A stretch of 32,000 nt of DNA, taken from positions 780,001-812,000 of the forward strand of contig NC_007681.1 in the NCBI RefSeq assembly GCF_000012545.1, written 5' to 3'. A program made the position numbers and the translations under genes. Below are positions 10,493 through 26,915 of this stretch, piece by piece. Below the pieces are notes generated by a model. The model was not told the DNA's origin, searched no databases, and saw nothing but the letters and a program-made list of their open reading frames with translations. The stretch comes from Methanosphaera stadtmanae DSM 3091 (GTDB taxonomy: Archaea > Methanobacteriota > Methanobacteria > Methanobacteriales > Methanobacteriaceae). Each line of letters begins with the position of its first letter. Within the stretch, counting starts at the first letter, position 1.

Positions 10493-12427
10493 ATGAATAA
10501 ATTCGAGAAATTAATGGGTTTTCTCGAAGGTCTTAAAATGACCATAGTAGGAGGAATATTCCTATTAATAAGTTTAATATTATTAATAACAAACACAACA
10601 TTACCAATAGATCCTGCATGGGTAACTATTGTAATATGTGGACTTCCTCTTCTATACCTAGCTTTAAGTAGATTAGTCTATGAACACTGGGTATCTTCAG
10701 CATTATTAATATGTATTGCAATGGTTGCATCATTAATGATTGGTGAAATATTTGCTGCAGGTGAAGTAGTATTTATAATGGCATTAGGAGCTCTTCTTGA
10801 AGACTACACTGTAAGAAAATCAAAACAAGGATTAAGAGATTTAATAAATCTAAAACCACAAACTGGTAGATTACTAATTAAAGAAAATGGAGATATTGTA
10901 GAAAAAGAAATAAAAGTTCAGGAAATAAAAAAAGAAGATAAATTACGAGTACTTCCAGGAGAAGTAATTCCAGTAGATGGAATTATAATCAGTGGAGATA
11001 CATCTGTAGATCAATCTGTTATGACTGGTGAATCACTACCACTAGATAAAACAGTTAATGATGAAGTATATGCTGGTACTTTAAACTTATATGGTGCCAT
11101 AGATATAATCTCAACAAAAATAGGTAAAGATTCTTCACTAGAAAAATTAATTAGAATGGTTAAGGAAGCTGATGAAAAACAAGCACCAACACAAAGAATT
11201 GCAGATAAATGGGCAACATGGTTAGTACCTGTTGCATTAGCTATTGCTATTATTACATACATACTAACATGGAATATTGAAAGAGCAGTAACAATACTAG
11301 TAGTATTCTGTCCATGTGCACTGATACTTGCTACACCAACAGCTATTATGGCTGCAATTGGTCAAGCTACAAAACATGGTGTTCTTATAAAATCAGGTGA
11401 AGCTCTAGAGAAAATGGGTAATGTTAACTCCATAGCATTTGATAAAACAGGAACTTTAACCTATGGTAACCTAGAAGTATCTGATATAATACCATTGAAA
11501 GAAAATATTAGTAAAAAAATATTATTAAAATATGTAACAATTTCAGAGGTAAAATCAGAACATCCTATAGGTAAAGCCATAGTAAAATACAGTAAAAATG
11601 AATCTATCAATTATACTCAACCTGAAGAATTTAAAATGATTCCAGGAAAAGGAGTATCTGCAGTATATAATAATAAAAAAATACTATCTGGTACTATTAA
11701 ATTCATGGAAGAAAATAATATTACAATAAATAGTGAATCTATTGAAAAATTAGACTTACTAAGAAATGAAGGAAAAGCATCTATTGTAGTATCATATGAT
11801 AATGAATTAGTTGGAATAATTGGGTTATCTGATGTGTTACGTGAAACTGCTCCATATGTAGTTAATACTTTAATCAATGATTTAGATACTGATGTTGAAT
11901 TATTAACTGGAGATAATCATAAAGCTGCAAATTACTTTGCAAGTAAAGTTGGTATAACAAATATCTATTCAGAACTGTTACCTGAAAACAAGGTTGAAAT
12001 AATTGAACAATTAAAATGTGATAAGAAAACAGTGTGTATGGTTGGTGATGGAATTAATGATGCTCCAGCACTAAAAACAGCAGATGTTAGTGTTGCAATG
12101 GGTGGTATGGGTAGTGATATAGTTATTGATGCAGCAGATATTGCATTGCTAGGTGATGATATTGAAAATTTAACATATCTTAAAAAATTATCAAATGCAA
12201 CTTTATTTACAATACATCTAAGTATAACAATATCTATGATAATAAATGCAGTTGCTATTGTATGTTCAGTATTAGGACTATTAGATCCTATAAGTGGAGC
12301 ATTAGTACATAATATAGGTTCATGTGCAGTTGTAATGTTGGCAGCATCATTGTATGATAGAGATTTTTCTGATTATGCTCACAAATCTAAAGATAATATT
12401 ACTATTAAAAAACCTATTACAAATTAA
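10493..12427 (+). CDS. Heavy-metal-translocating P1B-type ATPase (Cd/Zn/Co-like; specificity unresolved), no N-terminal metal-binding domain
   Basis: Motifs TGES (MTGESLP), CPC (VVFCPCALILATP), DKTGTLT, SEHPIGKAI and GDGINDAPAL. 644 aa, starting directly in TM segments. SD AGGAG present. Confidence 0.9.
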   Translation: MNKFEKLMGFLEGLKMTIVGGIFLLISLILLITNTTLPIDPAWVTIVICGLPLLYLALSRLVYEHWVSSALLICIAMVASLMIGEIFAAGEVVFIMALGALLEDYTVRKSKQGLRDLINLKPQTGRLLIKENGDIVEKEIKVQEIKKEDKLRVLPGEVIPVDGIIISGDTSVDQSVMTGESLPLDKTVNDEVYAGTLNLYGAIDIISTKIGKDSSLEKLIRMVKEADEKQAPTQRIADKWATWLVPVALAIAIITYILTWNIERAVTILVVFCPCALILATPTAIMAAIGQATKHGVLIKSGEALEKMGNVNSIAFDKTGTLTYGNLEVSDIIPLKENISKKILLKYVTISEVKSEHPIGKAIVKYSKNESINYTQPEEFKMIPGKGVSAVYNNKKILSGTIKFMEENNITINSESIEKLDLLRNEGKASIVVSYDNELVGIIGLSDVLRETAPYVVNTLINDLDTDVELLTGDNHKAANYFASKVGITNIYSELLPENKVEIIEQLKCDKKTVCMVGDGINDAPALKTADVSVAMGGMGSDIVIDAADIALLGDDIENLTYLKKLSNATLFTIHLSITISMIINAVAIVCSVLGLLDPISGALVHNIGSCAVVMLAASLYDRDFSDYAHKSKDNITIKKPITN

Positions 12428-12456
12428 TTTTTTTTCTTTTTTTTCTATTTTTTCAT
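12428..12456 (+). terminator. Oligo-T termination tract after the ATPase
   Basis: tttttttt c tttttttt c ta tttttt immediately follows the stop codon, as is typical of archaeal oligo-T terminators. Confidence 0.4.
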
Positions 12457-13150
12457 GTTATTATTTAGTGAATAAATAGTTCTTATTTTGGGAACTTAAT
12501 TTGATATTTATTCACTATATATGAACTAAATTTCATATTAATAAACACTTTTTAGGAACTAAAATATTTTCCAAATCACTTTTTAGGAACACATATATGG
12601 GCTTTATTCACTTCATGTTGATTAAATATATGTGTTTTGCTCAAAAAAAGAAAAATATGTTCTTATTTTAAGAAAAAAAACCTTAAGGTGTATTTTTTAA
12701 GTTTTTTATTAAAATGGTTAAATGGGGTTTTTTTTATAAAATAAATATGTTTTCTTCATTTTTACAATTAACTATTTAAAATCATTATCTTATTTATAAA
12801 AATAATGTAAATATTAAGATTAAATAAAAATTAAGTCCATATAATAACTTTATTTTTCTAAAATAATGTTCACTTTTTTGGTAATTTATTCATTTGTCTT
12901 ATAAATCTAAGTTAATTATGAACTTTTTTTATTTTTAAATAGAAAAAAATAATTAATTTATAGTAAATTAATATAAAAAATATAAATTATTTAGATAATT
13001 TTAATTTTTAATTATTGAATGTTTATATATTAGTATTACATTATATAATAATAATTAATTTCAACTTTAAAAAACCATTAATTATATATGATTTATTATA
13101 ATAATGTAGGGGATTTAAAAAAAATATATATAATTTTTGGGGGATGTATT

Positions 13151-14008
13151 ATGGTCAATGAAAAAAACTCTGATAATTATCAAGAGTTGACTGAAGCCCG
13201 AAAGGATTATAAATTACATCTGACTATTTTAGTATGTATAGTGATAGCTGAATATATTGGCATGCTAACAGTAAATCTCTATGGAATTACAATAGTATTC
13301 ATGCCATTATTATATTCATTGGTTTTAGCAATTGCACTCTATTTAGCAAAACCTGTTAAATGGATTACAGATAAACAATCAAATAAAGCTAGTACAATTA
13401 TGATGCTCTTAATTGGTCCATTACTAGCTAAACTAGCAATTGCAAGTGGACAAAATATTCAGATTATTTTTAATGCTGGACCTGCAATTCTTTTACAAGA
13501 GATAGGAAACTTGGGAACAATATTTGCAGCATTACCTGTAGCATTGTTACTTGGTTTTAAACGTGAATCTATTGGAATGACAAGTTCTATATGTAGAGAG
13601 CCACAGATGGCTGTTGTTATAGATACCTTTGGATTTAATTCACCAGAAACAAAAGGATTTTTCACAGTATTTCTTATAGGTACTGTTTTAGGAACACCAT
13701 TTATTAGTTTACTAGCAAGTGTATTGGCACATGTTATTCCATTACACCCATATGCTTATGGAATGGCATGTGGTATTGGTAGTGCAAGTATGAATGCAGC
13801 AGCAGTAGCATCGTTGTGTGCTATTTTCCCTTCAGCAACAGTTCAACTAGAAGCATTTAGTGGAATGGCAAATCTGCTTTCAATGGTTACAGGTATGTAT
13901 GTTTATATATTAGTAGCTATTCCATTAACAGAATGGTTATATCGTAAACTTGAACCAGTGATTAGTCGAATTTTATTTAAAAAAGAAAATAAAAAAATAA
14001 AGGATTGA
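13151..14008 (+). CDS. Polytopic membrane protein, DUF3100-like (paralog A)
   Basis: Multi-TM protein. The ATG at 13151 is preferred over the track start at 13088: SD GGGGGAT sits 5 nt upstream and the N-terminal length matches paralog B (DYKLH motif at the same offset). The DUF3100 assignment is from memory of the family. Confidence 0.7.
   Translation: MVNEKNSDNYQELTEARKDYKLHLTILVCIVIAEYIGMLTVNLYGITIVFMPLLYSLVLAIALYLAKPVKWITDKQSNKASTIMMLLIGPLLAKLAIASGQNIQIIFNAGPAILLQEIGNLGTIFAALPVALLLGFKRESIGMTSSICREPQMAVVIDTFGFNSPETKGFFTVFLIGTVLGTPFISLLASVLAHVIPLHPYAYGMACGIGSASMNAAAVASLCAIFPSATVQLEAFSGMANLLSMVTGMYVYILVAIPLTEWLYRKLEPVISRILFKKENKKIKD
13529..13615 (+). repeat. Near-identical nucleotide tract shared with 14970-15056 (copy 1)
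   Basis: 59 nt are identical (gcattacctgtagcattgttacttggttttaaacgtgaatctattggaatgacaagttc). There are then only 3 mismatches over the next 28 nt. The flanking paralogous codons differ freely at synonymous sites. Confidence 0.85.
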
Positions 14009-14015
14009 TTTAAAA

Positions 14016-14483
14016 GTGTCAAAGATTTTATCTAAAGAAGTGGTGATGGAATGGATACTTATTTTAATTATCTTTTCTTTCATGTCTGCTATAGGTAACT
14101 ATATAGGTTATCATTATCCATTTCAAGAATCCTTATATGGTATGTTTATTTTATGTGCTATAACCTTACTAGGACTAATAATAGAACATCATATTTCATA
14201 TAACATACCTGCTATTATTTACATAAGTATTATAGGTTTAATAGTGGCACTTCCATGGTCACCAATATCAAGTACTATTATATACTATACATCAAAGGTA
14301 AATATTGTATCATTAACAACAATACTTCTAGCATATGCTGGAATAGCTATGGGAAAAGACTTAGGAGAATTTAAAAAAGTAGGTCTAAAGGGTATTATTG
14401 TTACCTTTTTTGTAATATTAGGAACATATATGGGTTCTGCATTAATTGCACAAGGAGTTTTAATGTATACTGGAATGATTTAA
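14016..14483 (+). CDS. Small (about 145-155 aa) 4-5 TM membrane protein between the two DUF3100-like genes
   Basis: Hydrophobic ORF starting 8 nt after paralog A. GTG start at 14016 (alternative ATG at 14046). No family recognised. Confidence 0.6.
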   Translation: MSKILSKEVVMEWILILIIFSFMSAIGNYIGYHYPFQESLYGMFILCAITLLGLIIEHHISYNIPAIIYISIIGLIVALPWSPISSTIIYYTSKVNIVSLTTILLAYAGIAMGKDLGEFKKVGLKGIIVTFFVILGTYMGSALIAQGVLMYTGMI

Positions 14484-14600
14484 ACTCCTTTCTAAAAAAC
14501 TTTTTTTTTAAAATATTTATATAAAATTATAGTTACTAGTAAAAATATTAAAGTATTATTCTATAAACTATTATTATACTATACAAAGGTAATAATTAAC

Positions 14601-15425
14601 ATGTTTAATAAAAAGATTATAGAATCATCAAGGGAACTTCTTGATTATAAACTACACATCACAGTACTAATTTGTGTTTTAATATCTCAAGCTATTGGAA
14701 CAGTTACTATAACAATAACTTCAGGATTTAAAATTATAATTCTACCTTTAATATTTTCATTAATACTAGTTACAATTTTATATTTAGAAAAATATGTTAC
14801 ATGGATTACTAAAAAACAATCAAAAACTTGTGGAAAAATAATGTTAATTATTATTGGACCATTAATTGCAAAATTAGCAATAACAAGTGGACAAAATATT
14901 GATTTATTAGTAAAAACAGGAATAGCCATATTTCTTGAAGAATTAGGTGATATAGGATCAATATTTATAGCATTACCTGTAGCATTGTTACTTGGTTTTA
15001 AACGTGAATCTATTGGAATGACAAGTTCCATATGTAGAGAGCCACAAATGGCAGTTATAATAGATAAATATGGTCTTTCTTCAGATGAAGTTAAGGGATT
15101 TATGATAGTATATCTTATTGGAATAATACTTGGAACAATTTTTATAAGTATAATTGCAAGTTTTTCATATTTAATTCCACTACATCCATATGCATATGCT
15201 TTAGCATGTGGAGTAGGAAGTACAAGTATGAATGTAGCAGCAGTATCATCTCTTATAACTCTTCATCCTGATTTATCAAATCAGTTATTAGCATTTAGTG
15301 GAATATCTAATTTAATTTCATTAATACTAGGGGTATATGTGTATATACTCGTATCATTACCATTAACAGAGAAATTATATGCTTATATAGAACCTATTGT
15401 AAGTAAATATATTTTTAAACGTTAA
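14601..15425 (+). CDS. Polytopic membrane protein, DUF3100-like (paralog B)
   Basis: Roughly 55% identical by eye to paralog A across the full length (shared ALPVALLLGFKRESIGMTSSICREPQMAV and IPLHPYAY). SD AAGGTAA present. Confidence 0.75.
   Translation: MFNKKIIESSRELLDYKLHITVLICVLISQAIGTVTITITSGFKIIILPLIFSLILVTILYLEKYVTWITKKQSKTCGKIMLIIIGPLIAKLAITSGQNIDLLVKTGIAIFLEELGDIGSIFIALPVALLLGFKRESIGMTSSICREPQMAVIIDKYGLSSDEVKGFMIVYLIGIILGTIFISIIASFSYLIPLHPYAYALACGVGSTSMNVAAVSSLITLHPDLSNQLLAFSGISNLISLILGVYVYILVSLPLTEKLYAYIEPIVSKYIFKR
14970..15056 (+). repeat. Near-identical nucleotide tract shared with 13529-13615 (copy 2)
   Basis: See copy 1; mismatches fall at 15029, 15047 and 15053. Confidence 0.85.
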
Positions 15426-15529
15426 TTCTTTTTTAGACTTTTTTTATTTTATTTTTTTGAATTAGACATTATATTAATCATTAGAATCAAAAATATAATT
15501 AGTAATAAAAATTTTTGGAGAATTAAATT

Positions 15530-16387
15530 ATGAGTGAATATACATTAGAAAATATAGCACAAGTTGTAGAAATATTAAGAGAAAAAAGTCCATTAACACA
15601 TTGTATTACAAATGTAGTTACTGTTAAAGATTGTGCTAATGCTGTTTTAGCAGTAGGAGCATCACCAATAATGGCAAATGCTCCAGAAGAAGCAGAAGAA
15701 ATTGTAGGTATTTCTAATTCACTTGTAATAAATATTGGAACATTAACTAAAGAACAAATAGAAACAATGAAGAAATCAGCAAAATTTGCTATTGAAAATA
15801 ATAAGCCATTCATACTAGATCCTGTAGGTGTAGGTATTAGTAACATTAGAAATCAAACACCAATCGATATTATTACAAATTCAAAACCATCTATTATTAG
15901 AGGAAATCTTTCAGAAATCAAAGCAATAGCAATGATGTATGATATATTAGATGAATGTACAATGGCAAAAGGTGTTGATGTAGCTCAATGTGATATTATA
16001 AACAAAGATACATTAATTTCTAATTGTAATCTTATTAAGAATATTTCAGAAAAATTAAATACTACAATAGCAGTATCTGGACCAATTGATATAATATCTG
16101 ATGGACATGATGTATACACAATAGAAAATGGTGATGCTATGATGTCTAGAATAACAGGTAGTGGATGTATGTTAGGATGTGTACTTGGAGCATATCTTGC
16201 AGTAACAAATCCATTAGAAGCAGCAATTACAGGTACACTTGTAATGGGTATAGCTGGAGAATTAGCTGCAAAAACAGCAAGAGATAATAACAAAGGAACA
16301 GGTTCATTTGGAATATATCTTATAGATGAATTATCAAAATTAAATAAAAGCACAATACTTTCTCAATCAAAATTAAATAAAATGTAG
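15530..16387 (+). CDS. thiM: Hydroxyethylthiazole kinase ThiM (copy 1)
   Basis: PLTHCITN, ANA..A.GASP.M, RGN.SEI and ITGSGCML motifs; 285 aa. SD GGAGA present. Confidence 0.9.
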   Translation: MSEYTLENIAQVVEILREKSPLTHCITNVVTVKDCANAVLAVGASPIMANAPEEAEEIVGISNSLVINIGTLTKEQIETMKKSAKFAIENNKPFILDPVGVGISNIRNQTPIDIITNSKPSIIRGNLSEIKAIAMMYDILDECTMAKGVDVAQCDIINKDTLISNCNLIKNISEKLNTTIAVSGPIDIISDGHDVYTIENGDAMMSRITGSGCMLGCVLGAYLAVTNPLEAAITGTLVMGIAGELAAKTARDNNKGTGSFGIYLIDELSKLNKSTILSQSKLNKM

Positions 16388-16397
16388 GTAATTGAAA

Positions 16398-17963
16398 ATG
16401 GATATTGATTATAGTGTCTATTTAGTAACTGATCAATTTGATTTTACTGAATCAGAATTTTTAAATATTATAGAGGAAGCTCTAAAAGGAAACACTACTA
16501 TTGTTCAAATAAGAGAAAAAAATAGTAGTACAAGAGATTTTTTAAATCTTGCACAGAAAGTTAAGAAATTAACTGATAAATATAATGTTCCATTAATTAT
16601 TAATGATAGAATAGACATAGCTCTTGCAGTAGATTCTGCAGGAGTTCATCTAGGTCAAGATGATATGCCTTGTAAAATAGCAAGAAAAATTATAGGACCA
16701 GATAAAATTATTGGAATCAGTGCTGAAAACTATGGGGATGCACTCCAAGCACAAGAAGATGGAGCAGACTATTTAGGTATAGGTGCTATAGAAAAAACTC
16801 CAACAAAAACAGATTGTAGTGTTATTTCAGAAGAGGATCTAAATAAAATTAAAAAAACAATAAAAATACCCCACGTAGCAATAGGTGGTGTAAAAGAACA
16901 TAATACTAGAGAAATAATAGATAAATATGGCTTTGATGGTGTAGCAATAGTTTCAGCAATTATGAAAAGTGACCTTCCAAAAGAAGCTGCAACTAACTTT
17001 TATAATCTAGTAAATAGTAAGTTAACCTTAGATGATGTTTATGCTGCTATATATGGTGTTATTGTAGGGGATGCTCTTGGTGTTCCATATGAATTTAAAC
17101 CTAGATCTACACTACAAAAAACACCTGTAACTGGAATGAGAGGTCATGGTACTTATGATAAACCAGAGGGCACTTGGTCTGATGATAGTTCTTTAACATT
17201 AGCATTAGCTGATAGTTTAGTATATGGTATAGATTATGATGATATAATGTCTAGATTTAGTAAATGGTTATATCAAAACATGTATACTCCAGAGAATGAA
17301 GTTTTTGATGTTGGACAAACTACAGAAGAAGCAATCTATAATTATACAATGGGTGTAAATCCATTAGATTGTGGTGGAGTTGAGGAATATGAAAATGGTA
17401 ATGGTTCTTTAATGAGAATAATGCCATTATTATTATATATAAATAGAAAATCAATCGATGAAAAAAGTGCTATTGAATTAATAAATAATGTTTCATCATT
17501 AACACATGCACATAAAACTAGTAAAGCTTGTTGTAATATATATAATTTCCTAGTACAAGCTATTATTGAAAATAGGGAAGCTAATAATCTTAAAACTTTA
17601 ATTAAAAAAGCAATTGAAAGGGCTAAAAAACAGTATCCACTAAAAGAATATCCAGAATTTAAATCTTTATACGATGATCTATTCTTTGATTCAGGAGAAA
17701 ATTTAGATAGTACTGGATATGTTGTAAATGCATTACAAATTGCATTCTATGCATGTTATCATAGTAGTGATTATAGTGATGCTGTGTTGTGTGCTGTGAA
17801 TTTTGGAGAAGACACTGACACAAATGCTGCTATAACTGGTGGGATTGCTGCTTTATACTATGGTTATAAATCTATTCCACCTAAATGGATCGATGTTATT
17901 ATAAATAAGGAATTAATTAATGAAGTTTTAGATGCCTTTAGTGAAGGTCTTAAACATTATTAA
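16398..17963 (+). CDS. thiE: Fusion protein: thiamine-phosphate synthase ThiE (N-terminal ~205 aa) plus ADP-ribosylglycohydrolase-family domain (C-terminal ~310 aa)
   Basis: ThiE motifs: YLVTD, VQIREK, INDRIDIA, GVHLGQDD and IGGV. ARH motifs: GVIVGDALGVPYEF, TWSDDSSLTLALA, GNGSLMRIMP and GEDTDTNAAITGG. The reading frame is uninterrupted across the junction near 17000-17040. ATG at 16398 is preferred; the track uses TTG at 16392. Confidence 0.85.
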   Translation: MDIDYSVYLVTDQFDFTESEFLNIIEEALKGNTTIVQIREKNSSTRDFLNLAQKVKKLTDKYNVPLIINDRIDIALAVDSAGVHLGQDDMPCKIARKIIGPDKIIGISAENYGDALQAQEDGADYLGIGAIEKTPTKTDCSVISEEDLNKIKKTIKIPHVAIGGVKEHNTREIIDKYGFDGVAIVSAIMKSDLPKEAATNFYNLVNSKLTLDDVYAAIYGVIVGDALGVPYEFKPRSTLQKTPVTGMRGHGTYDKPEGTWSDDSSLTLALADSLVYGIDYDDIMSRFSKWLYQNMYTPENEVFDVGQTTEEAIYNYTMGVNPLDCGGVEEYENGNGSLMRIMPLLLYINRKSIDEKSAIELINNVSSLTHAHKTSKACCNIYNFLVQAIIENREANNLKTLIKKAIERAKKQYPLKEYPEFKSLYDDLFFDSGENLDSTGYVVNALQIAFYACYHSSDYSDAVLCAVNFGEDTDTNAAITGGIAALYYGYKSIPPKWIDVIINKELINEVLDAFSEGLKHY

Positions 17964-18017
17964 TTTTCTCCTATTTTTTTTAGTATTTAATGAGTTTGGA
18001 CCATTGTATATTTTTAT

Positions 18018-18383
18018 CTAAAATTCTTTAAAAATTAGTTCTAAACCAATAGCAAATCCCATATCTTCATCATACCATCCTTTTTTCTTGTCTTGATTCA
18101 TATATAGTATGCTGTATGCTTTCATTTTATAGGTTTCATACATGACAGCCCCAGGATATTTTTTATTATATTCTAAAGGATTAATATCTAACATATATAC
18201 TAATTTTGTTGGATAGGCATCTGTACTATTTAATAACTCATTTTTTATAGATTTGGCATAGTGTCTATCGATTCTAATTTTTCCACTAAAATCTCCTGGA
18301 AGTGTATTATACCATTCAAGATAGTTTAACATTTTATTTTCTTCTTTTTGAAGTATGTTTTGAATATTTTTATCAATAGTCAT
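18018..18383 (-). CDS. Hypothetical protein, 121 aa, no family recognised
   Basis: Clean ORF with SD GAGTGAT. Soluble, with no TM segments. Confidence 0.5.
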   Translation of the reverse strand: MTIDKNIQNILQKEENKMLNYLEWYNTLPGDFSGKIRIDRHYAKSIKNELLNSTDAYPTKLVYMLDINPLEYNKKYPGAVMYETYKMKAYSILYMNQDKKKGWYDEDMGFAIGLELIFKEF

Positions 18384-20070: not shown

Positions 20071-20313
20071 TTAATCACTACTAAATGTTAAATAATTACT
20101 TTCACATGCTGCATCATAGAATGTGTCATATAAATCCTTAGATATTTCATTACTATTTATTAGATGAATCTCTGTTTTTACACCAATACTTGTAAGACAA
20201 TCATATAAAGCATCAAGATTTCTTCCATAATAATCTGGTAAATCTAATTTTTTAATTAAATAGTCATGTGTTTTAAGTTTAATTTTTTTACCATCTAATA
20301 TTACAATATTCAA
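20071..20313 (-). CDS. Barstar (barnase inhibitor)
   Basis: LDLPDYYGRNLDALYDCLTS is near-identical to the barstar binding helix (Y29, D35 and D39 equivalents present). TTG start with SD GGTGA, 19 nt after the barnase stop. Confidence 0.85.
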   Translation of the reverse strand: MNIVILDGKKIKLKTHDYLIKKLDLPDYYGRNLDALYDCLTSIGVKTEIHLINSNEISKDLYDTFYDAACESNYLTFSSD

Positions 20314-20332
20314 TATTTTTCACCAAATTTTT

Positions 20333-20782
20333 CTATATTTCATTAAATGTTTTATAGTGATCTGTAGTGTAGTAGACTTTATAATTTTCAGTAGAATATA
20401 CTATTCTTTTGGAACCACGTGTGGTACCATTTGCATCAATATCACATTCTATATATTTTGATGTACTAGTTGGAAGTATTTTCTGCCTATTTGTAAAAAC
20501 ATCTCCACCAATACTTTTTCCAGGTGCATATTCTTTTAATGGACCACCATTCCATCCAAGTTTTTGTGCTTCTTTTTTAGTTATATAATTACTTGGAAGT
20601 TTATGATATTCTTTTATATAAGCTGCCACTTCATCAACAGTACAATATTGTCCATTTTCAACAATATGTATATTGGTTGTATTATTGTTACTAATTATAT
20701 TATTATCATGGTCTGATAGGATATTTACTCCAAAAACACTACCTAGAATGGCAATAATAACAATAGTAATTACTGATATCAT
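20333..20782 (-). CDS. Barnase-family guanyl-specific ribonuclease with N-terminal hydrophobic signal/anchor
   Basis: YHKLPSNYITKKEAQKLGW...APGKSIGGDVFTNRQ...YIECDID...TRGSKRIVYS...YYTTDHYKTFNEI aligns with B. amyloliquefaciens barnase. Equivalents of catalytic K27, E73, R83, R87 and H102 are all present. The N-terminus MISVITIVIIAILGSVFGV is a TM/signal segment. Confidence 0.9.
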   Translation of the reverse strand: MISVITIVIIAILGSVFGVNILSDHDNNIISNNNTTNIHIVENGQYCTVDEVAAYIKEYHKLPSNYITKKEAQKLGWNGGPLKEYAPGKSIGGDVFTNRQKILPTSTSKYIECDIDANGTTRGSKRIVYSTENYKVYYTTDHYKTFNEI

Positions 20783-22700: not shown

Positions 22701-24176
22701 ATGTCTCAAAAAAGTTCTTCTCCTAGATGGGAAAGTAATATAAGCTTTATACTTGCCATGATTGGGTCTGCTGTCGGATTAGGAAATATATGGCGTTATC
22801 CATATGTTGCATATACCAATGGTGGAGGAGCATTTATACTTCCATATATTATTTCAATAATATGTCTTGGAATTCCATTACTATTTATTGAATATGGTAC
22901 TGGATATAAATTCAAGTCGGGTATGAGTAAAATTCTTCGTAAAATTAATACAAAATATGAATATATAGGATGGTTTATTCAAACATCAACCTTTTTTATT
23001 TTAACATACTATGTATGTGTAGTAGCATGGAATCTATTGTATGTTCCATTAAGCTTTTTTAAAGGTTGGGGTTCAAATCCAGATAATTTTCTGAATACAG
23101 TAATACTAGAATCAACAACAGATGTAAGTGGATTGTTTCATATAGCAATATATGTTCTTATTGCACTTACAATTGTATGGATTATATTATGGTATATTTC
23201 ACATCATGATATAAATAAGGGAATAGGTAAATTTAATAAAATATTAACACCCTTATTATTTATTATAATGATAATTATAGTGGCATTTGCTCTTACATTA
23301 CCAGGATCAGGTTTTGGTGTATTAACTCTCCTAACACCAGATTTATCAGCAATTACTAATTCAGACATATGGATTGCAGCACTAAGTCAAATTTTATTTT
23401 CACTTAGTATAGGTATGTGTATTGTTGTTGCATATACTGCATATCTTCCAGATGATGTTAATATTCCTAAAAATGTACTACTTGTAGCTTTAGCAAATAG
23501 TTCATTTGAAGTATTTACAGCAATAGGAATTTTTGGAATACTTGGTTTTATGAGTACAACACATGGAATTCCTATTAATGAACTTGTAACACAAGGAACT
23601 ACATTAGCATTTGTAGCATTCCCTCAAATATTTAATGTAATGGGATTTATAGGTTATATTATTGGGCCTTTATTCTTTATAGCATTATTATTTGCAGGTA
23701 TAACATCAAATATTTCAATAATGGAACCTATTATCTTATCACTTAGAGATAAATTTGGTTTTGAAAGAAAAAAAGCAGTGACAATATGTTGTGTTGTAGG
23801 ATTTATAATATCATTACTATTTACAACTTCCTTGGGAAGTAGTTTAGTAGGAGTATTTGACACATTCATAAATCAATTTGGTGTGGTGTTAAATGTAATT
23901 ATTGAACTTATATTAATTACATGGATTTATGGAATTGATAAAATTCTACCTGGAATAAATAAGAATGCAACCTTCCTAAAAATAGGACCTAAATGGAAAA
24001 TATGGATGAAATACATTATTCCAATAATTATATTCATAATATGGATTAAAGGTATTTCTGAGTCATTAATAACAAATGATACATTTACAAACACAGTACA
24101 ATTGTTGTTATTGGTGGCATTGTTTATTGTTCCATTGATACTAACAAAAATTCCAGCAAAAGTTGAAGATTACTAA
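22701..24176 (+). CDS. Sodium-dependent transporter, neurotransmitter:sodium symporter (SNF) family
   Basis: RWESNISFILAMIGSAVGLGNIWRYPY signature with about 11-12 TM segments; 491 aa. SD AGAGGTGA present. Confidence 0.9.
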   Translation: MSQKSSSPRWESNISFILAMIGSAVGLGNIWRYPYVAYTNGGGAFILPYIISIICLGIPLLFIEYGTGYKFKSGMSKILRKINTKYEYIGWFIQTSTFFILTYYVCVVAWNLLYVPLSFFKGWGSNPDNFLNTVILESTTDVSGLFHIAIYVLIALTIVWIILWYISHHDINKGIGKFNKILTPLLFIIMIIIVAFALTLPGSGFGVLTLLTPDLSAITNSDIWIAALSQILFSLSIGMCIVVAYTAYLPDDVNIPKNVLLVALANSSFEVFTAIGIFGILGFMSTTHGIPINELVTQGTTLAFVAFPQIFNVMGFIGYIIGPLFFIALLFAGITSNISIMEPIILSLRDKFGFERKKAVTICCVVGFIISLLFTTSLGSSLVGVFDTFINQFGVVLNVIIELILITWIYGIDKILPGINKNATFLKIGPKWKIWMKYIIPIIIFIIWIKGISESLITNDTFTNTVQLLLLVALFIVPLILTKIPAKVEDY

Positions 24177-25214: not shown

Positions 25215-25520
25215 TTATTCAAGTAATTTATTTACAGTATCAACCTTAGCATCAAGTGTACGATTTTCTAAATCTCTTCTATCATCAATTTTAATAACAG
25301 AATAAACTCTACCAATACCTGCTTCAAAAACTGCTTCTTGTGCTTTAGCTAATACTGGATATAATTCTTCATAACTATTAGCTTCAATCTGTGTACCCAT
25401 ACCAGTTAATTGGTAATTAAGATTAGAATCTTTAATAACTTGTACTGCTGCTGTTACAAATTTTTTTAATTCAGTACCATCTGTTCCAACTGGTAATATT
25501 GCAAAATCTGCTGTTATCAT
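25215..25520 (-). CDS. MTH1187/YkoF-related (UPF0045) putative thiamine/HMP-binding protein
   Basis: MITADFAILPVGT...YQLTGMGTQIE...IKIDDRRD matches the ~100-aa MTH1187 family pattern. ATG at 25520 is preferred over the track's GTG at 25529: SD GGAGTGAT sits 4 nt upstream and it lies 5 nt after the thiM stop. Confidence 0.75.
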   Translation of the reverse strand: MITADFAILPVGTDGTELKKFVTAAVQVIKDSNLNYQLTGMGTQIEANSYEELYPVLAKAQEAVFEAGIGRVYSVIKIDDRRDLENRTLDAKVDTVNKLLE

Positions 25521-25525
25521 AAATA

Positions 25526-26374
25526 TCACTCCAATTTATATAACTTTCCATATTTCATAATAGTTTCATCATTCATATTATACATCATATCAATCAGATA
25601 TGTTCTAAAAGAACCTGAACCTTCATTATTTATTTCCATTTTTCTTCTTGCTAATTCTCCAGAAATAGCCATGGATAAACTTCCAATAATTGCTGCTTCT
25701 AGTGGACTTGTAATAGCACAAAAGGATCCGATAACACAGGTAAGCATACAACCACTACCTGTAATTTTAGACATGACTTCTTCACCATTATCAATAAGAT
25801 AGATACTTACTCCATCTGAAATAATATCTATTGCACCAGAAACTGCAATTGTTGTATTAAGTTTATCTGCAACAGCTTTTACTAAAGAAGCATTTGATTT
25901 AATATTATCTTTTGTAATAATATCATCACTTGAAACATCTACTCCTTTAGCTACAGATTTTTCATCTGTAATATTAAAAAGATTAGCAATAGCTTTTATT
26001 TCAGACATATTTCCACGAATAACATCAACTGATGATTTATTAATCAAATCAATAGTAATATCATTTCTTAATTTAGAAACACCTACAGCAACTGGATCAA
26101 GAACAAGGGGTGTGTTTGTCTTTTTTGTATGACAAGCTGCAATTTGCATTGGTTCTATTTGATCTTCAAGTAAAGTACCCATATTAATGATAGTAACACC
26201 TGCAGCTTCAACAAATTCTTCAATCTCAGGAGCTTCATTTGCCATAGCTGGTGATCCACCAATAGCAAGTACAACATTAGCACAGTCATTAATTGTTACA
26301 TAATTTGTAATACAATGTGTTAATGGACATTTATTTCTTAGTTTTTCTATATTTTTACTACATTGTTCTAACAT
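25526..26374 (-). CDS. thiM: Hydroxyethylthiazole kinase ThiM (copy 2, about 50% identical to copy 1 by eye)
   Basis: PLTHCITN, AIGGSPAMAN, RGNMSEIKAIA and ITGSGCML motifs; 282 aa. No obvious SD, so the transcript may be leaderless or short-leadered. Confidence 0.9.
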   Translation of the reverse strand: MLEQCSKNIEKLRNKCPLTHCITNYVTINDCANVVLAIGGSPAMANEAPEIEEFVEAAGVTIINMGTLLEDQIEPMQIAACHTKKTNTPLVLDPVAVGVSKLRNDITIDLINKSSVDVIRGNMSEIKAIANLFNITDEKSVAKGVDVSSDDIITKDNIKSNASLVKAVADKLNTTIAVSGAIDIISDGVSIYLIDNGEEVMSKITGSGCMLTCVIGSFCAITSPLEAAIIGSLSMAISGELARRKMEINNEGSGSFRTYLIDMMYNMNDETIMKYGKLYKLE

Positions 26375-26522: not shown

Positions 26523-26915
26523 TTAGGATGATATTTTTTCCTCTTCAATATTTCTATTTTTAGCTATAATTTTATTTTTTTTGGATTTTTTAAGAGCATA
26601 TATTGTTATAGGAATTAAAATTATGAATATAACAAAAGCAGAAGCTGGTATTCCAAAATACCTTTGTACTTGTTCTTGAATAATAAGCATAACAAGTAAT
26701 CCACCAATAAATCCAATAATCATTGATTTAAAAGTCATTCCATGTGTCCACTTACAATCCTCTTTCATTTTCCCAAAAAAAGGATCAGCAGGTTCTTTAA
26801 AAACGCCCTGATATTCTCCTATTGCTTTGGGAATTATGTATACTGAATAAACTAATAAAACTAGAACTATATATCCTGTTATTTCTGTTATTGTCAAATA
26901 AATGCTTCCTTTCAT
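26523..26915 (-). CDS. Small membrane protein (3 TM) with lysine-rich tail, no family recognised
   Basis: Hydrophobic segments with a KKSKKNKIIAKNRN tail. No clear SD. Confidence 0.45.
   Translation of the reverse strand: MKGSIYLTITEITGYIVLVLLVYSVYIIPKAIGEYQGVFKEPADPFFGKMKEDCKWTHGMTFKSMIIGFIGGLLVMLIIQEQVQRYFGIPASAFVIFIILIPITIYALKKSKKNKIIAKNRNIEEEKISS

Follow-up and report, generated by a model that had tools for sequence, protein, structure and literature searches.

A putative two-component DUF3100 membrane system and a tandem duplicate of its large subunit beside thiM-thiE in Methanosphaera stadtmanae

Results

Five co-directional genes lie on the + strand of the window (the whole stretch of 32,000 nucleotides that was analysed, from an M. 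stadtmanae-type genome), in the order DUF3100-A, a small-subunit gene, DUF3100-B, thiM and a thiE fusion. The gaps between them are 7, 117, 104 and 4 nt, and the description in an earlier note on this DNA of five co-directional genes with short gaps is therefore essentially confirmed. The large-subunit gene DUF3100-A (13151..14008, 285 aa) has a full-domain match to PF11299; an ATG at 13088 is possible as its start (306 aa), but GGGGGA stands 7-8 nt before 13151. It is followed by the small-subunit gene (14016..14483, 155 aa), which begins with GTG, or alternatively with ATG 14046 to give 145 aa, and whose product has no Pfam model and is 100% identical to a protein of M. stadtmanae DSM 3091. 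A spacer (14484..14600), in which a T9 run 18 nt past the stop and a TTTATATA-like element can be read from the sequence, leads to DUF3100-B (14601..15425, 274 aa; PF11299), a partnerless paralogue of A. A second spacer (15426..15529) with T6, T7 and T7 runs at 15429-15458, a TATA-like sequence and a GGAG ribosome-binding site separates B from thiM1, encoding hydroxyethylthiazole kinase (15530..16387; PF02110, 243 bits; NF006830, 289 bits). Last comes thiE fused to an ADP-ribosylglycohydrolase (ARH) domain (16392..17963; PF02581 at residues 9-190 and PF03747 at residues 218-497), with ATG 16398 as its likely start, which would widen the last gap to 10 nt. The same gene order is found in an M. 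stadtmanae assembly. The window also holds a second thiM (25526-26374, - strand), which overlaps a gene for a YkoF-type thiamine-binding protein (PF01910; 25215-25529).

Both large subunits match PF11299 far above its cut-off of 27, A with 296.4 bits over profile positions 1-234 of 235 and B with 281.2 bits over positions 2-234, which bears out their earlier assignment to DUF3100. A and B are 57% identical. A literature search on the names DUF3100 and PF11299 found no papers, and in every source the proteins are named only 'DUF3100 domain-containing' or 'hypothetical'. The two best-conserved motifs of the family, both in the large subunit, are G-F-K-R-E-S-I-G-M-T-S-S-I-C-R-E-P (motif 1) and P-L-H-P-Y-A-x-x-x-A-C-G-[IV]-G-S-x-S-M-N (motif 2). 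A and B do not differ in motif 1, all family-invariant residues are kept in B, and the B-specific changes at conserved sites are five in number and conservative, two of them falling within motif 2.

Homology links the small protein to the last ~150 aa of DUF3100 proteins that are 420-490 aa long (phmmer E down to 3e-34), and a natural fusion of large and small parts, P0106, occurs in a Methanobacteriaceae MAG. At all 80 bacterial loci the partner domain is present, fused in 26 and encoded by the directly downstream gene in 54; archaeal DUF3100 genes are split in 99 cases and fused in 2. A and the small protein, with their 7-nt gap, have the two-part architecture as defined in the present analysis, that is, a large domain fused to or followed by a partner of ~150 aa. 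B is the exception to this rule, the nearest small gene lying upstream and being shared with A; among 165 loci, a count that leaves aside genes cut by contig ends and two unclear cases, the only DUF3100 genes lacking a fused or adjacent small domain were B and a relative, C, at the Methanosphaera locus L084. The small protein is the separate-gene version of the fused C-terminal domain and, on this evidence, the obligate partner of DUF3100, and it is this partnership that is newly recognised here; the PF11299 model covers only the large N-terminal domain, so that the partner domain falls outside it. That A, the small protein and B belong to one membrane-transport module, as the earlier note had proposed, agrees with these observations, and the fused or adjacent partner domain likewise favours its suggestion of a hetero-oligomer, with B lacking a partner of its own. 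Pfam gave no match even at E<=10 for the small protein, for its Methanobacteriaceae homologue or for the C-terminal domains of six fused forms. The UniRef cluster of the small protein carries a DUF340 label, DUF340 (Pfam model PF03956) being the LysO exporter family, and this label was rejected on the strength of the empty Pfam search.

The AF2 model of the fused homologue P0106 is confident in both domains (pLDDT 88, pTM 0.87). Its small domain consists of four long and two short helices, and both conserved motifs map to short, interrupted helices that are flanked by long membrane ones, a placement that makes these two motif-bearing elements the likely site of substrate and ion binding in the model. 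Conserved helix-break-helix elements of this kind, two in number, recall elevator-type carriers with re-entrant hairpins, and CitS/2HCT, GltPh and NhaP/NapA were among the highest-probability Foldseek matches, none of them significant (E>=0.015, TM-score <=0.27, probability <=0.60). A profile search against PDB sequences gave no match.

Orthologues of A are found across Methanosphaera at 67-100% identity, always with the small-subunit gene following them. A neighbour-joining (NJ) tree places the A and B clades of Methanosphaera as sisters, B having the longer branches and a topology that mirrors that of the A clade. As judged from sequence, B arose inside Methanosphaera by tandem duplication of A, which is why it adjoins the A-small pair; since no small gene accompanies B itself, its most likely partner is the small subunit of A.

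Loci were gathered by a genome scan with an alignment of a motif-selected subset as query, and the family ranges over gut and rumen methanogens, many Firmicutes and Gammaproteobacteria. An M20 amidohydrolase lies within two genes of DUF3100 at 42 of the 80 bacterial loci, directly upstream in 33, and other recurrent neighbours are aldehyde dehydrogenase (33), a 3-hydroxyisobutyrate-dehydrogenase-like (HIBADH-like) protein (29), a LysR regulator, usually encoded on the opposite strand (20), and Amidohydro_1 (9). We note that this bacterial catabolic gene set is LysR- or PucR-associated; that the bacterial operon serves pantothenate catabolism is speculation. The archaeal relative P0241 has an M20/M28 peptidase, DUF3100 and the small gene in that order, and Methanobrevibacter-type loci read tiaS, DUF3100 (with small), PrpD, Fumerase and citrate synthase. 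No ATPase or solute-binding-protein gene was found among the conserved neighbours. Within the window, no amidohydrolase or peptidase family was detected among ORFs of at least 100 aa other than the barnase and barstar ORFs, and no PrpD gene lies beside the module.

Linkage of DUF3100 to thi genes was assessed at 146 loci outside Methanosphaera, with ~1.85 Mb of flanks, in a scan directed at thiM, thiE and YkoF-like genes (E<=0.01). None was found at the 80 bacterial loci (1.36 Mb of flanks) or at the 66 non-Methanosphaera archaeal loci (0.49 Mb). Co-localisation with these genes did not recur in distant lineages, and this lack of enrichment (0/146) goes against the proposal of the earlier note that the module imports thiazole, HMP or thiamine. 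Within Methanosphaera, B lies directly upstream of thiM1 and co-directional with it at nine of the ten B loci that reach far enough (L001, L087-89, L094/95, L098, L100 and L101), and several species share the order A-small-B-thiM-thiE, with identities of only 67-81% between their A proteins and that of the window. At L091/92, L096 and L097, A-small stands alone in unrelated contexts with no thi link, and at L084 the order A-small-C-B is found in another unrelated context, with no thiM, thiE or YkoF-like gene within ~7 kb downstream of B. The A proteins of the Methanosphaera loci that are not thi-linked nest among the thi-linked ones in the NJ tree. That the module adjoins thiM-thiE seems to be a chance local feature of a single Methanosphaera lineage.

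The spacer between B and thiM measures 104-223 nt, and at each of the seven Methanosphaera loci examined it contains T-runs of 6 or more (7 or more except in L094); the runs lie directly after the B stop and resemble archaeal terminators. Together with the TATA-like sequence and the GGAG site in the same gap, they make it likely that thiM-thiE are transcribed separately from B, which, like the missing enrichment, counts against the importer proposal of the earlier note; this reading leans on T-runs in a genome of ~26% GC, where such runs are common in any spacer. T-runs are also present between small and B at most other Methanosphaera loci examined, and that spacer may likewise hold a terminator and a promoter. 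A scan for sigma-70 promoters and hairpin terminators, with bacterial-type models unsuited to an archaeon, gave no more sites than in shuffled sequence. No Rfam family, the TPP riboswitch included, reached its threshold in the window, none was found by Rfam in seven Firmicutes DUF3100 loci, a regular expression for a THI-box-like pattern (of uncalibrated sensitivity) had no matches in 2.2 Mb of loci, and no 12-mer is common to the upstream regions of A, B, thiM1 and thiM2. TPP riboswitches are not known to have been reported in methanogens, and the lack of one therefore says little about the window itself.

No known thiamine, HET or HMP permease family was found among A, B and the small protein (Pfam gave only PF11299, NCBIfam nothing), and none of the known thiamine-transporter families lies beside either thiM. 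The earlier statement that no importer family is present thus stands for these genes, while it had passed over the second thiM and the YkoF-type gene of the window. Two further proteins were considered as alternative thiamine permeases: h168 was rejected as a secreted or anchored protein, and h130 was set aside as a 3-TM protein without a family match.

Discussion

We propose that A works with the small protein as a two-component secondary transporter, ion-coupled and belonging to the DUF3100 family; the small subunit would contribute the helical bundle that in fused homologues forms the covalently linked C-terminus. If A and B share this subunit, two alternative or mixed complexes could arise. 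The family-wide gene context makes a small organic acid, taken up as a nutrient, the most likely substrate, for example a di/tricarboxylate or a compound of N-acyl or amino-acid-derived type, a class taken over from relatives with no more than 26-60% identity; import direction and ion coupling are assumed from the same context. The thiM-thiE pair would be a candidate lateral transfer from Firmicutes, found beside the locus in the M. stadtmanae-like lineage alone, and thiM1 has been flagged elsewhere as a candidate for bacteria-to-archaea transfer (PMC3445992). Taken as a whole, with A-small as transporter, B as a duplicate of A, an organic acid as substrate and a historical adjacency to the thi genes, we consider this proposal moderately probable.

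The neighbourhood of B invites a different view, in which B, once duplicated, came to serve ThiM and ThiE as the importer of a thiamine moiety, be it HET, carboxy-HET, HMP or thiamine, together with the small subunit that it shares with A. M. stadtmanae requires thiamin (PMC10658910), so that the earlier note was right to presuppose a need for an importer, and the absence of a known transporter family beside either thiM, the position of B upstream of thiM1 at nine of ten loci, the faster evolution of the B clade than of the A clade and the placing of two of its five specific substitutions in motif 2 are all consistent with such a role. Given the conserved Arg/Glu motifs of the family and the carboxylate-type contexts of its genes, carboxy-HET (cHET) would then be the most chemically consistent candidate substrate. 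We nevertheless regard recruitment of B for thiamine uptake as distinctly unlikely: the linkage is limited to one lineage of one genus and so amounts to roughly one evolutionary event, it is missing from every locus scanned elsewhere and downstream of B in L084, and terminator-like T-runs separate B from thiM, with no riboswitch and no upstream motif in common with thiM1 or thiM2. The invariant Arg/Glu motif is moreover unchanged in B, its substitutions are conservative, and its position is explained by tandem duplication alone. The thiamine-importer hypothesis is weakened by these data, short of disproof.

Two other explanations concern what the module, or B within it, does at all. Transport direction is not readable from sequence, and the module might instead act in export or efflux, for instance of an amino acid, an organic acid or another metabolite; the Methanobrevibacter-type neighbours PrpD, Fumerase and citrate synthase look biosynthetic and not catabolic, and the UniRef cluster label 'DUF340 domain-containing' points the same way. 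That label was not reproduced by Pfam, however, and the dominant bacterial context of a LysR-/PucR-associated amidohydrolase with dehydrogenases is the usual signature of uptake, so that we hold export to be unlikely. It is very improbable that B is a decaying or functionless duplicate, leaving A-small as the only active unit: its want of a partner, its longer branches and its absence beside A-small in L091/92, L096 and L097 would fit decay, but B is an intact full-length ORF with every family-invariant residue and a 281-bit Pfam score, and the mirroring of the A tree by the B tree argues for long-term retention.

The proposed A-small transporter and the B duplicate can be set beside several known systems. 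In E. coli, abgR-abgABT combines a LysR regulator, M20-family aminoacyl hydrolases and AbgT, an importer of p-aminobenzoyl-glutamate, and bacterial DUF3100 loci with an opposite-strand LysR gene, an M20 amidohydrolase and a permease resemble it in organisation only; no homology to AbgT was detected, and the window, unlike abgABT, has no amidohydrolase neighbour. TRAP (DctQ/DctM) and TTT (TctB/TctA) transporters pair a small with a large membrane subunit, fused in some lineages, much as the small DUF3100 subunit of 4-5 helices and its large subunit are encoded by adjacent genes or as a single polypeptide. No sequence similarity to those systems was found, no conserved solute-binding-protein gene lies nearby, and the small domain of fused DUF3100 proteins is C-terminal. 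Thiazole-salvage operons of the thiW-thiM-thiE type, together with other thiamine-related permeases, were reportedly described by Rodionov et al. in 2002, and the window is like them in having a membrane-protein gene co-directional with and just upstream of thiM-thiE in a thiamin-dependent host. It differs from them in that A, small and B do not belong to the ThiW, CytX, ThiT/YuaJ, YkoEDC-YkoF or PnuT families, no TPP riboswitch was found, the linkage occurs in one Methanosphaera lineage and transcription is probably separate.

Since the second domain is always present, fused or as the next gene, experiments on such a system will need both DUF3100 genes to be expressed together, and the conserved partners (M20 amidohydrolase, aldehyde dehydrogenase and hydroxy-acid dehydrogenase) narrow the search for a substrate. 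For thiamine biology our analysis counsels caution, the locus being a weak candidate for the thiamin importer of M. stadtmanae. Were B nonetheless such an importer, DUF3100 would gain a first assigned function, one scaffold subunit would be seen to serve paralogous substrate-specific subunits, and the supply route of a thiamin-auxotrophic gut methanogen would be identified. The fusion that ends the gene row also varies within the genus: no ARH match was found at the L098, L100 and L101 loci, and in L094 and L095, from other Methanosphaera, thiE and ARH are separate genes.

A probable two-component transporter locus with an orphan paralogue

Five co-directional open reading frames lie on the + strand where the earlier note had placed them, and Pfam and NCBIfam agree with its naming of the DUF3100-like, thiM and thiE-fusion genes. 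The two DUF3100 (PF11299) genes, A (13151-14008; RBS GGGGGA just upstream, alternative ATG at 13088) and B (14601-15425), score 296 and 281 bits in Pfam (cut-off 27), and their products are 57% identical. Between them lies the gene for the small membrane protein (14016-14483; GTG start, alternative ATG at 14046); this protein shares 100% identity with its DSM 3091 counterpart and has no family match in Pfam, even at E<=10. Downstream are thiM1 (15530-16387), which matches hydroxyethylthiazole kinase, and a gene (16392/16398-17963) in which ThiE is joined to an ADP-ribosylglycohydrolase (ARH) domain. The intergenic gaps are 7, 117, 104 and 4-10 nt. The genome from which the window derives is of M. 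stadtmanae type, with a GC content of ~26%, and an M. stadtmanae assembly has the same order of small gene, B, thiM and thiE.

Only 395 DUF3100 clusters were found at E<=0.001 among 1.84 billion cluster representatives, and of the full-length clusters roughly half have 420-490 aa instead of ~275 aa. In these longer proteins the C-terminal ~150 residues match the small protein of the window (best E 3e-34), and one natural fusion of the two, P0106, comes from a Methanobacteriaceae MAG. We therefore divided the family into N-domain and C-domain profiles and scanned 165 fetched loci with both. Every bacterial DUF3100 gene (80/80) has a partner, either as a fused C-domain (26/80, mainly Gammaproteobacteria) or as a separate ~150-aa gene directly downstream of it (54/80, mostly Firmicutes); the archaeal loci have 99 split-adjacent DUF3100 genes and 2 fused ones. 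Of the genes in the 165 loci, 17 are partnerless: 11 are the Methanosphaera B paralogues and C, an extra paralogue at locus L084, a further four are truncated at a contig end, and the remaining two (L146, L160) are ambiguous. This census makes A-small the standard unit and B an orphan large subunit, and a DUF3100-type two-component secondary transporter (A plus small) with a partnerless paralogue B is a well-supported description of the locus. B most likely pairs with the product of the small gene, which ends 117 nt before B starts, and it is in this form, a small subunit shared with B, that the hetero-oligomer suggested in the earlier note finds support.

In L084 (6388-9766), from a widespread Methanosphaera species, three DUF3100 paralogues, A, C and B, accompany a sole small gene located after A. 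This is the clearest case for the use of one small subunit by several large ones.

The AF2 model of fused P0106 (m05bcb7630604; input alignment of 41 sequences) is confident over both domains (pLDDT 88, pTM 0.87). Its DUF3100 part is predicted to consist of long membrane helices broken by two helix-break-helix elements, and these elements carry the two best-conserved motifs of the family, G-x-[KG]-R-E-x-I-G-x-T-x-S-I-x-R-E-P (motif 1) and A-x-A-M-A-x-G-[VI]-G-S-x-S-M (motif 2). The C-domain is modelled as four long and two short helices, and its weak hhalign match to the first ~125 residues of DUF3100 (alignment A4; probability 46%, E 2e-4) is a tentative sign of an ancient internal repeat on either side of the core that bears the motifs. 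No conserved ATPase or binding-protein gene occurs near the DUF3100 loci, and a secondary, ion-coupled carrier is thus the most economical reading. No paper in the literature mentions DUF3100 or PF11299, and in all database sources the proteins go by no other name than 'DUF3100 domain-containing' or 'hypothetical'. It therefore seems that neither the obligate partner domain nor the sharing of a subunit has been described before; split secondary transporters as such are a known kind of system.

Gene context across the family

The earlier note had proposed the A/small/B module as the missing importer of thiazole, HMP or a related thiamine moiety, for which linkage of DUF3100 to thi genes elsewhere would be expected. 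We examined 80 bacterial loci from one-genome-per-species contigs (Bacillales, Clostridia, Synergistales, Halomonadaceae, Psychrobacter and others) and 80 loci of the archaeal clade from metagenomes, with further loci added through exact-protein look-up. Phmmer searches with ThiM1, ThiE, the ARH domain and, from the second thi cluster of the window, ThiM2 and the YkoF-like protein found no homologues in the flanks of the 80 bacterial loci (1.36 Mb) or the 66 archaeal loci outside Methanosphaera (0.49 Mb). No TPP riboswitch was detected in the window or in seven Firmicutes loci, and a THI-box pattern, whose sensitivity is not established, had no match in the 2.2 Mb of loci scanned.

The neighbours that do recur are strongly conserved and of other kinds. 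At 42/80 bacterial loci DUF3100 has an M20 amidohydrolase (TIGR01891 type) no more than two genes away; it is immediately upstream in 33 loci and co-directional in 41. Aldehyde dehydrogenase (33/80) and a 3-hydroxyisobutyrate-dehydrogenase-like (HIBADH-like) enzyme (29/80) are also frequent, as are LysR (20/80, mostly on the opposite strand) and PucR (12/80) regulators, and an Amidohydro_1 deaminase-like enzyme, TauE and a Crp regulator occur at 8-9/80 loci, several from Lachnospiraceae included. The locus of the archaeal relative P0241 reads M20/M28 peptidase, DUF3100, small; loci of Methanobrevibacter type, including M. ruminantium mru_0686, read tiaS, one or two DUF3100(+small), PrpD(-like), a ~294-aa gene without assigned identity, Fumerase, short citrate synthase and nitroreductase. 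These conserved neighbours point to organic acids or N-acyl compounds rather than thiamine moieties, and the proposed import of thiamine moieties is not supported on the criteria that the earlier note itself set. Judged by family context, a small organic acid or N-acyl compound is the probable substrate, with low confidence as to which.

The conserved bacterial operon comprises LysR on the opposite strand (or PucR), HIBADH-like dehydrogenase, aldehyde dehydrogenase, M20 amidohydrolase and DUF3100(+small), as in L170 2174-8332 (Pseudomonas sp.), L169 4650-8335 (Anaerovoracaceae) and L025-L029 (Bacillales). As pure speculation, the trio of amidase, primary-alcohol hydroxy-acid dehydrogenase and aldehyde dehydrogenase would suit the classical pantothenate-degradation route, and other N-acyl compounds equally; the pantothenase gene of that route is still not known (PMC10393543). 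The Methanobrevibacter-type order is very stable (L167 1197-9332, L168 5011-15142 and ~40 metagenome loci, L103-L165), with DUF3100(+small) often a tandem pair of pairs.

Origin of the B-thiM adjacency

The M. stadtmanae-like contigs L087-89, L098, L100 and L101 all keep the order P-type ATPase, A, small, B, thiM1, thiE (L094/95 are truncated at their upstream end), and their A proteins share 67-100% identity with that of the window. At L091/92, L096 and L097, A-small stands alone (A identity 74-78%) among housekeeping genes for a LeuA/CimA-type synthase, methyltransferases, pyruvate kinase, a proteasome subunit, McrC-like and DUF2112 proteins; at L084, A-small-C-B is followed by a convergently oriented flippase gene, and a thi gene is absent from that locus. 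In an NJ tree the A and B(+C) clades are sisters within Methanosphaera, with longer B branches, and the A-only sequences are nested among thi-linked A. It follows that A-small is not kept beside thi genes by selection, that B is a tandem duplicate of A, which accounts for its position, and that the B-thiM adjacency is essentially a single inherited event. ThiM1 and ThiM2 are among the genes that an earlier phylogenomic study named as candidates for bacteria-to-archaea transfer, with Firmicutes as donors (PMC3445992), which fits insertion of thiM-thiE next to a locus already present. With moderate confidence, the adjacency is most likely historical.

Some points favour a thiamine role for B. 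M. stadtmanae has a requirement for thiamin (PMC10658910, citing Miller and Wolin 1985), the window carries thiE, two thiM genes and a gene for a YkoF-type thiamine-binding protein with no recognised thiamine permease near the locus, and B adjoins thiM1 in nearly every B-bearing locus. Taken together they come to one lineage-specific adjacency, against a family-wide pattern that points elsewhere, and we regard such a role as improbable. Only a few otherwise conserved positions have changed specifically in the B clade, and conservatively so (M51L, F174Y, A212T, A216V, A256S), and the Arg/Glu-containing motif 1 does not differ between A and B; nothing here suggests that the substrate chemistry of B has changed radically.

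Oligo-T tracts are the archaeal termination signal. From 12400 to 18100 on the + strand, nearly all T-runs of at least 6 lie in spacers and only two within coding sequence; those in spacers follow the ATPase gene, small (T9), B (T6, T7, T7) and thiE. Seven of seven Methanosphaera loci examined have a B-thiM spacer of 104-223 nt, in which T-runs always come shortly after the stop codon of B and are followed by TATA-like, AT-rich sequence and, before thiM, by GGAG. This placement suggests that [A-small], [B] and [thiM-thiE] are likely separate units, though it is suggestive only in so AT-rich a genome; a bacterial-type promoter and terminator scan was uninformative. The spacer from the P-type ATPase gene to A (12428-13150) is unusually long (~720 nt) and extremely AT-rich, with several T-runs of at least 6, no ORF of at least 60 aa and no RNA family at Rfam gathering thresholds.

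Other genes of the window

ThiE and ARH are adjacent separate genes in L094 (5491-6984) and L095 (3680-5278) and fused in the window (16392-17963); L098, L100 and L101 gave no ARH match. On the - strand, thiM2 (25526-26374; PF02110, 229 bits) overlaps the YkoF-type thiamine-binding-protein gene (25215-25529; PF01910, 102 bits) by 4 nt, and 148 nt upstream of thiM2 is h130 (26523-26915), whose 130-aa, ~3-TM product matches no family; this trio recurs in a second Methanosphaera contig, L098. Between the two thiM clusters is a gene for a sodium:neurotransmitter-symporter (SNF) family transporter (22701-24176). A putative barnase-type ribonuclease ORF occupies 20333-20782 (- strand) in the region ~20071-20782, and barnase is among the lateral-transfer candidates (PMC3445992). 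At L001, a near-identical M. stadtmanae locus, the matching genes are annotated PF00545 Ribonuclease and PF01337 Barstar, and by analogy a barstar ORF would be expected just downstream of the barnase ORF in the window.
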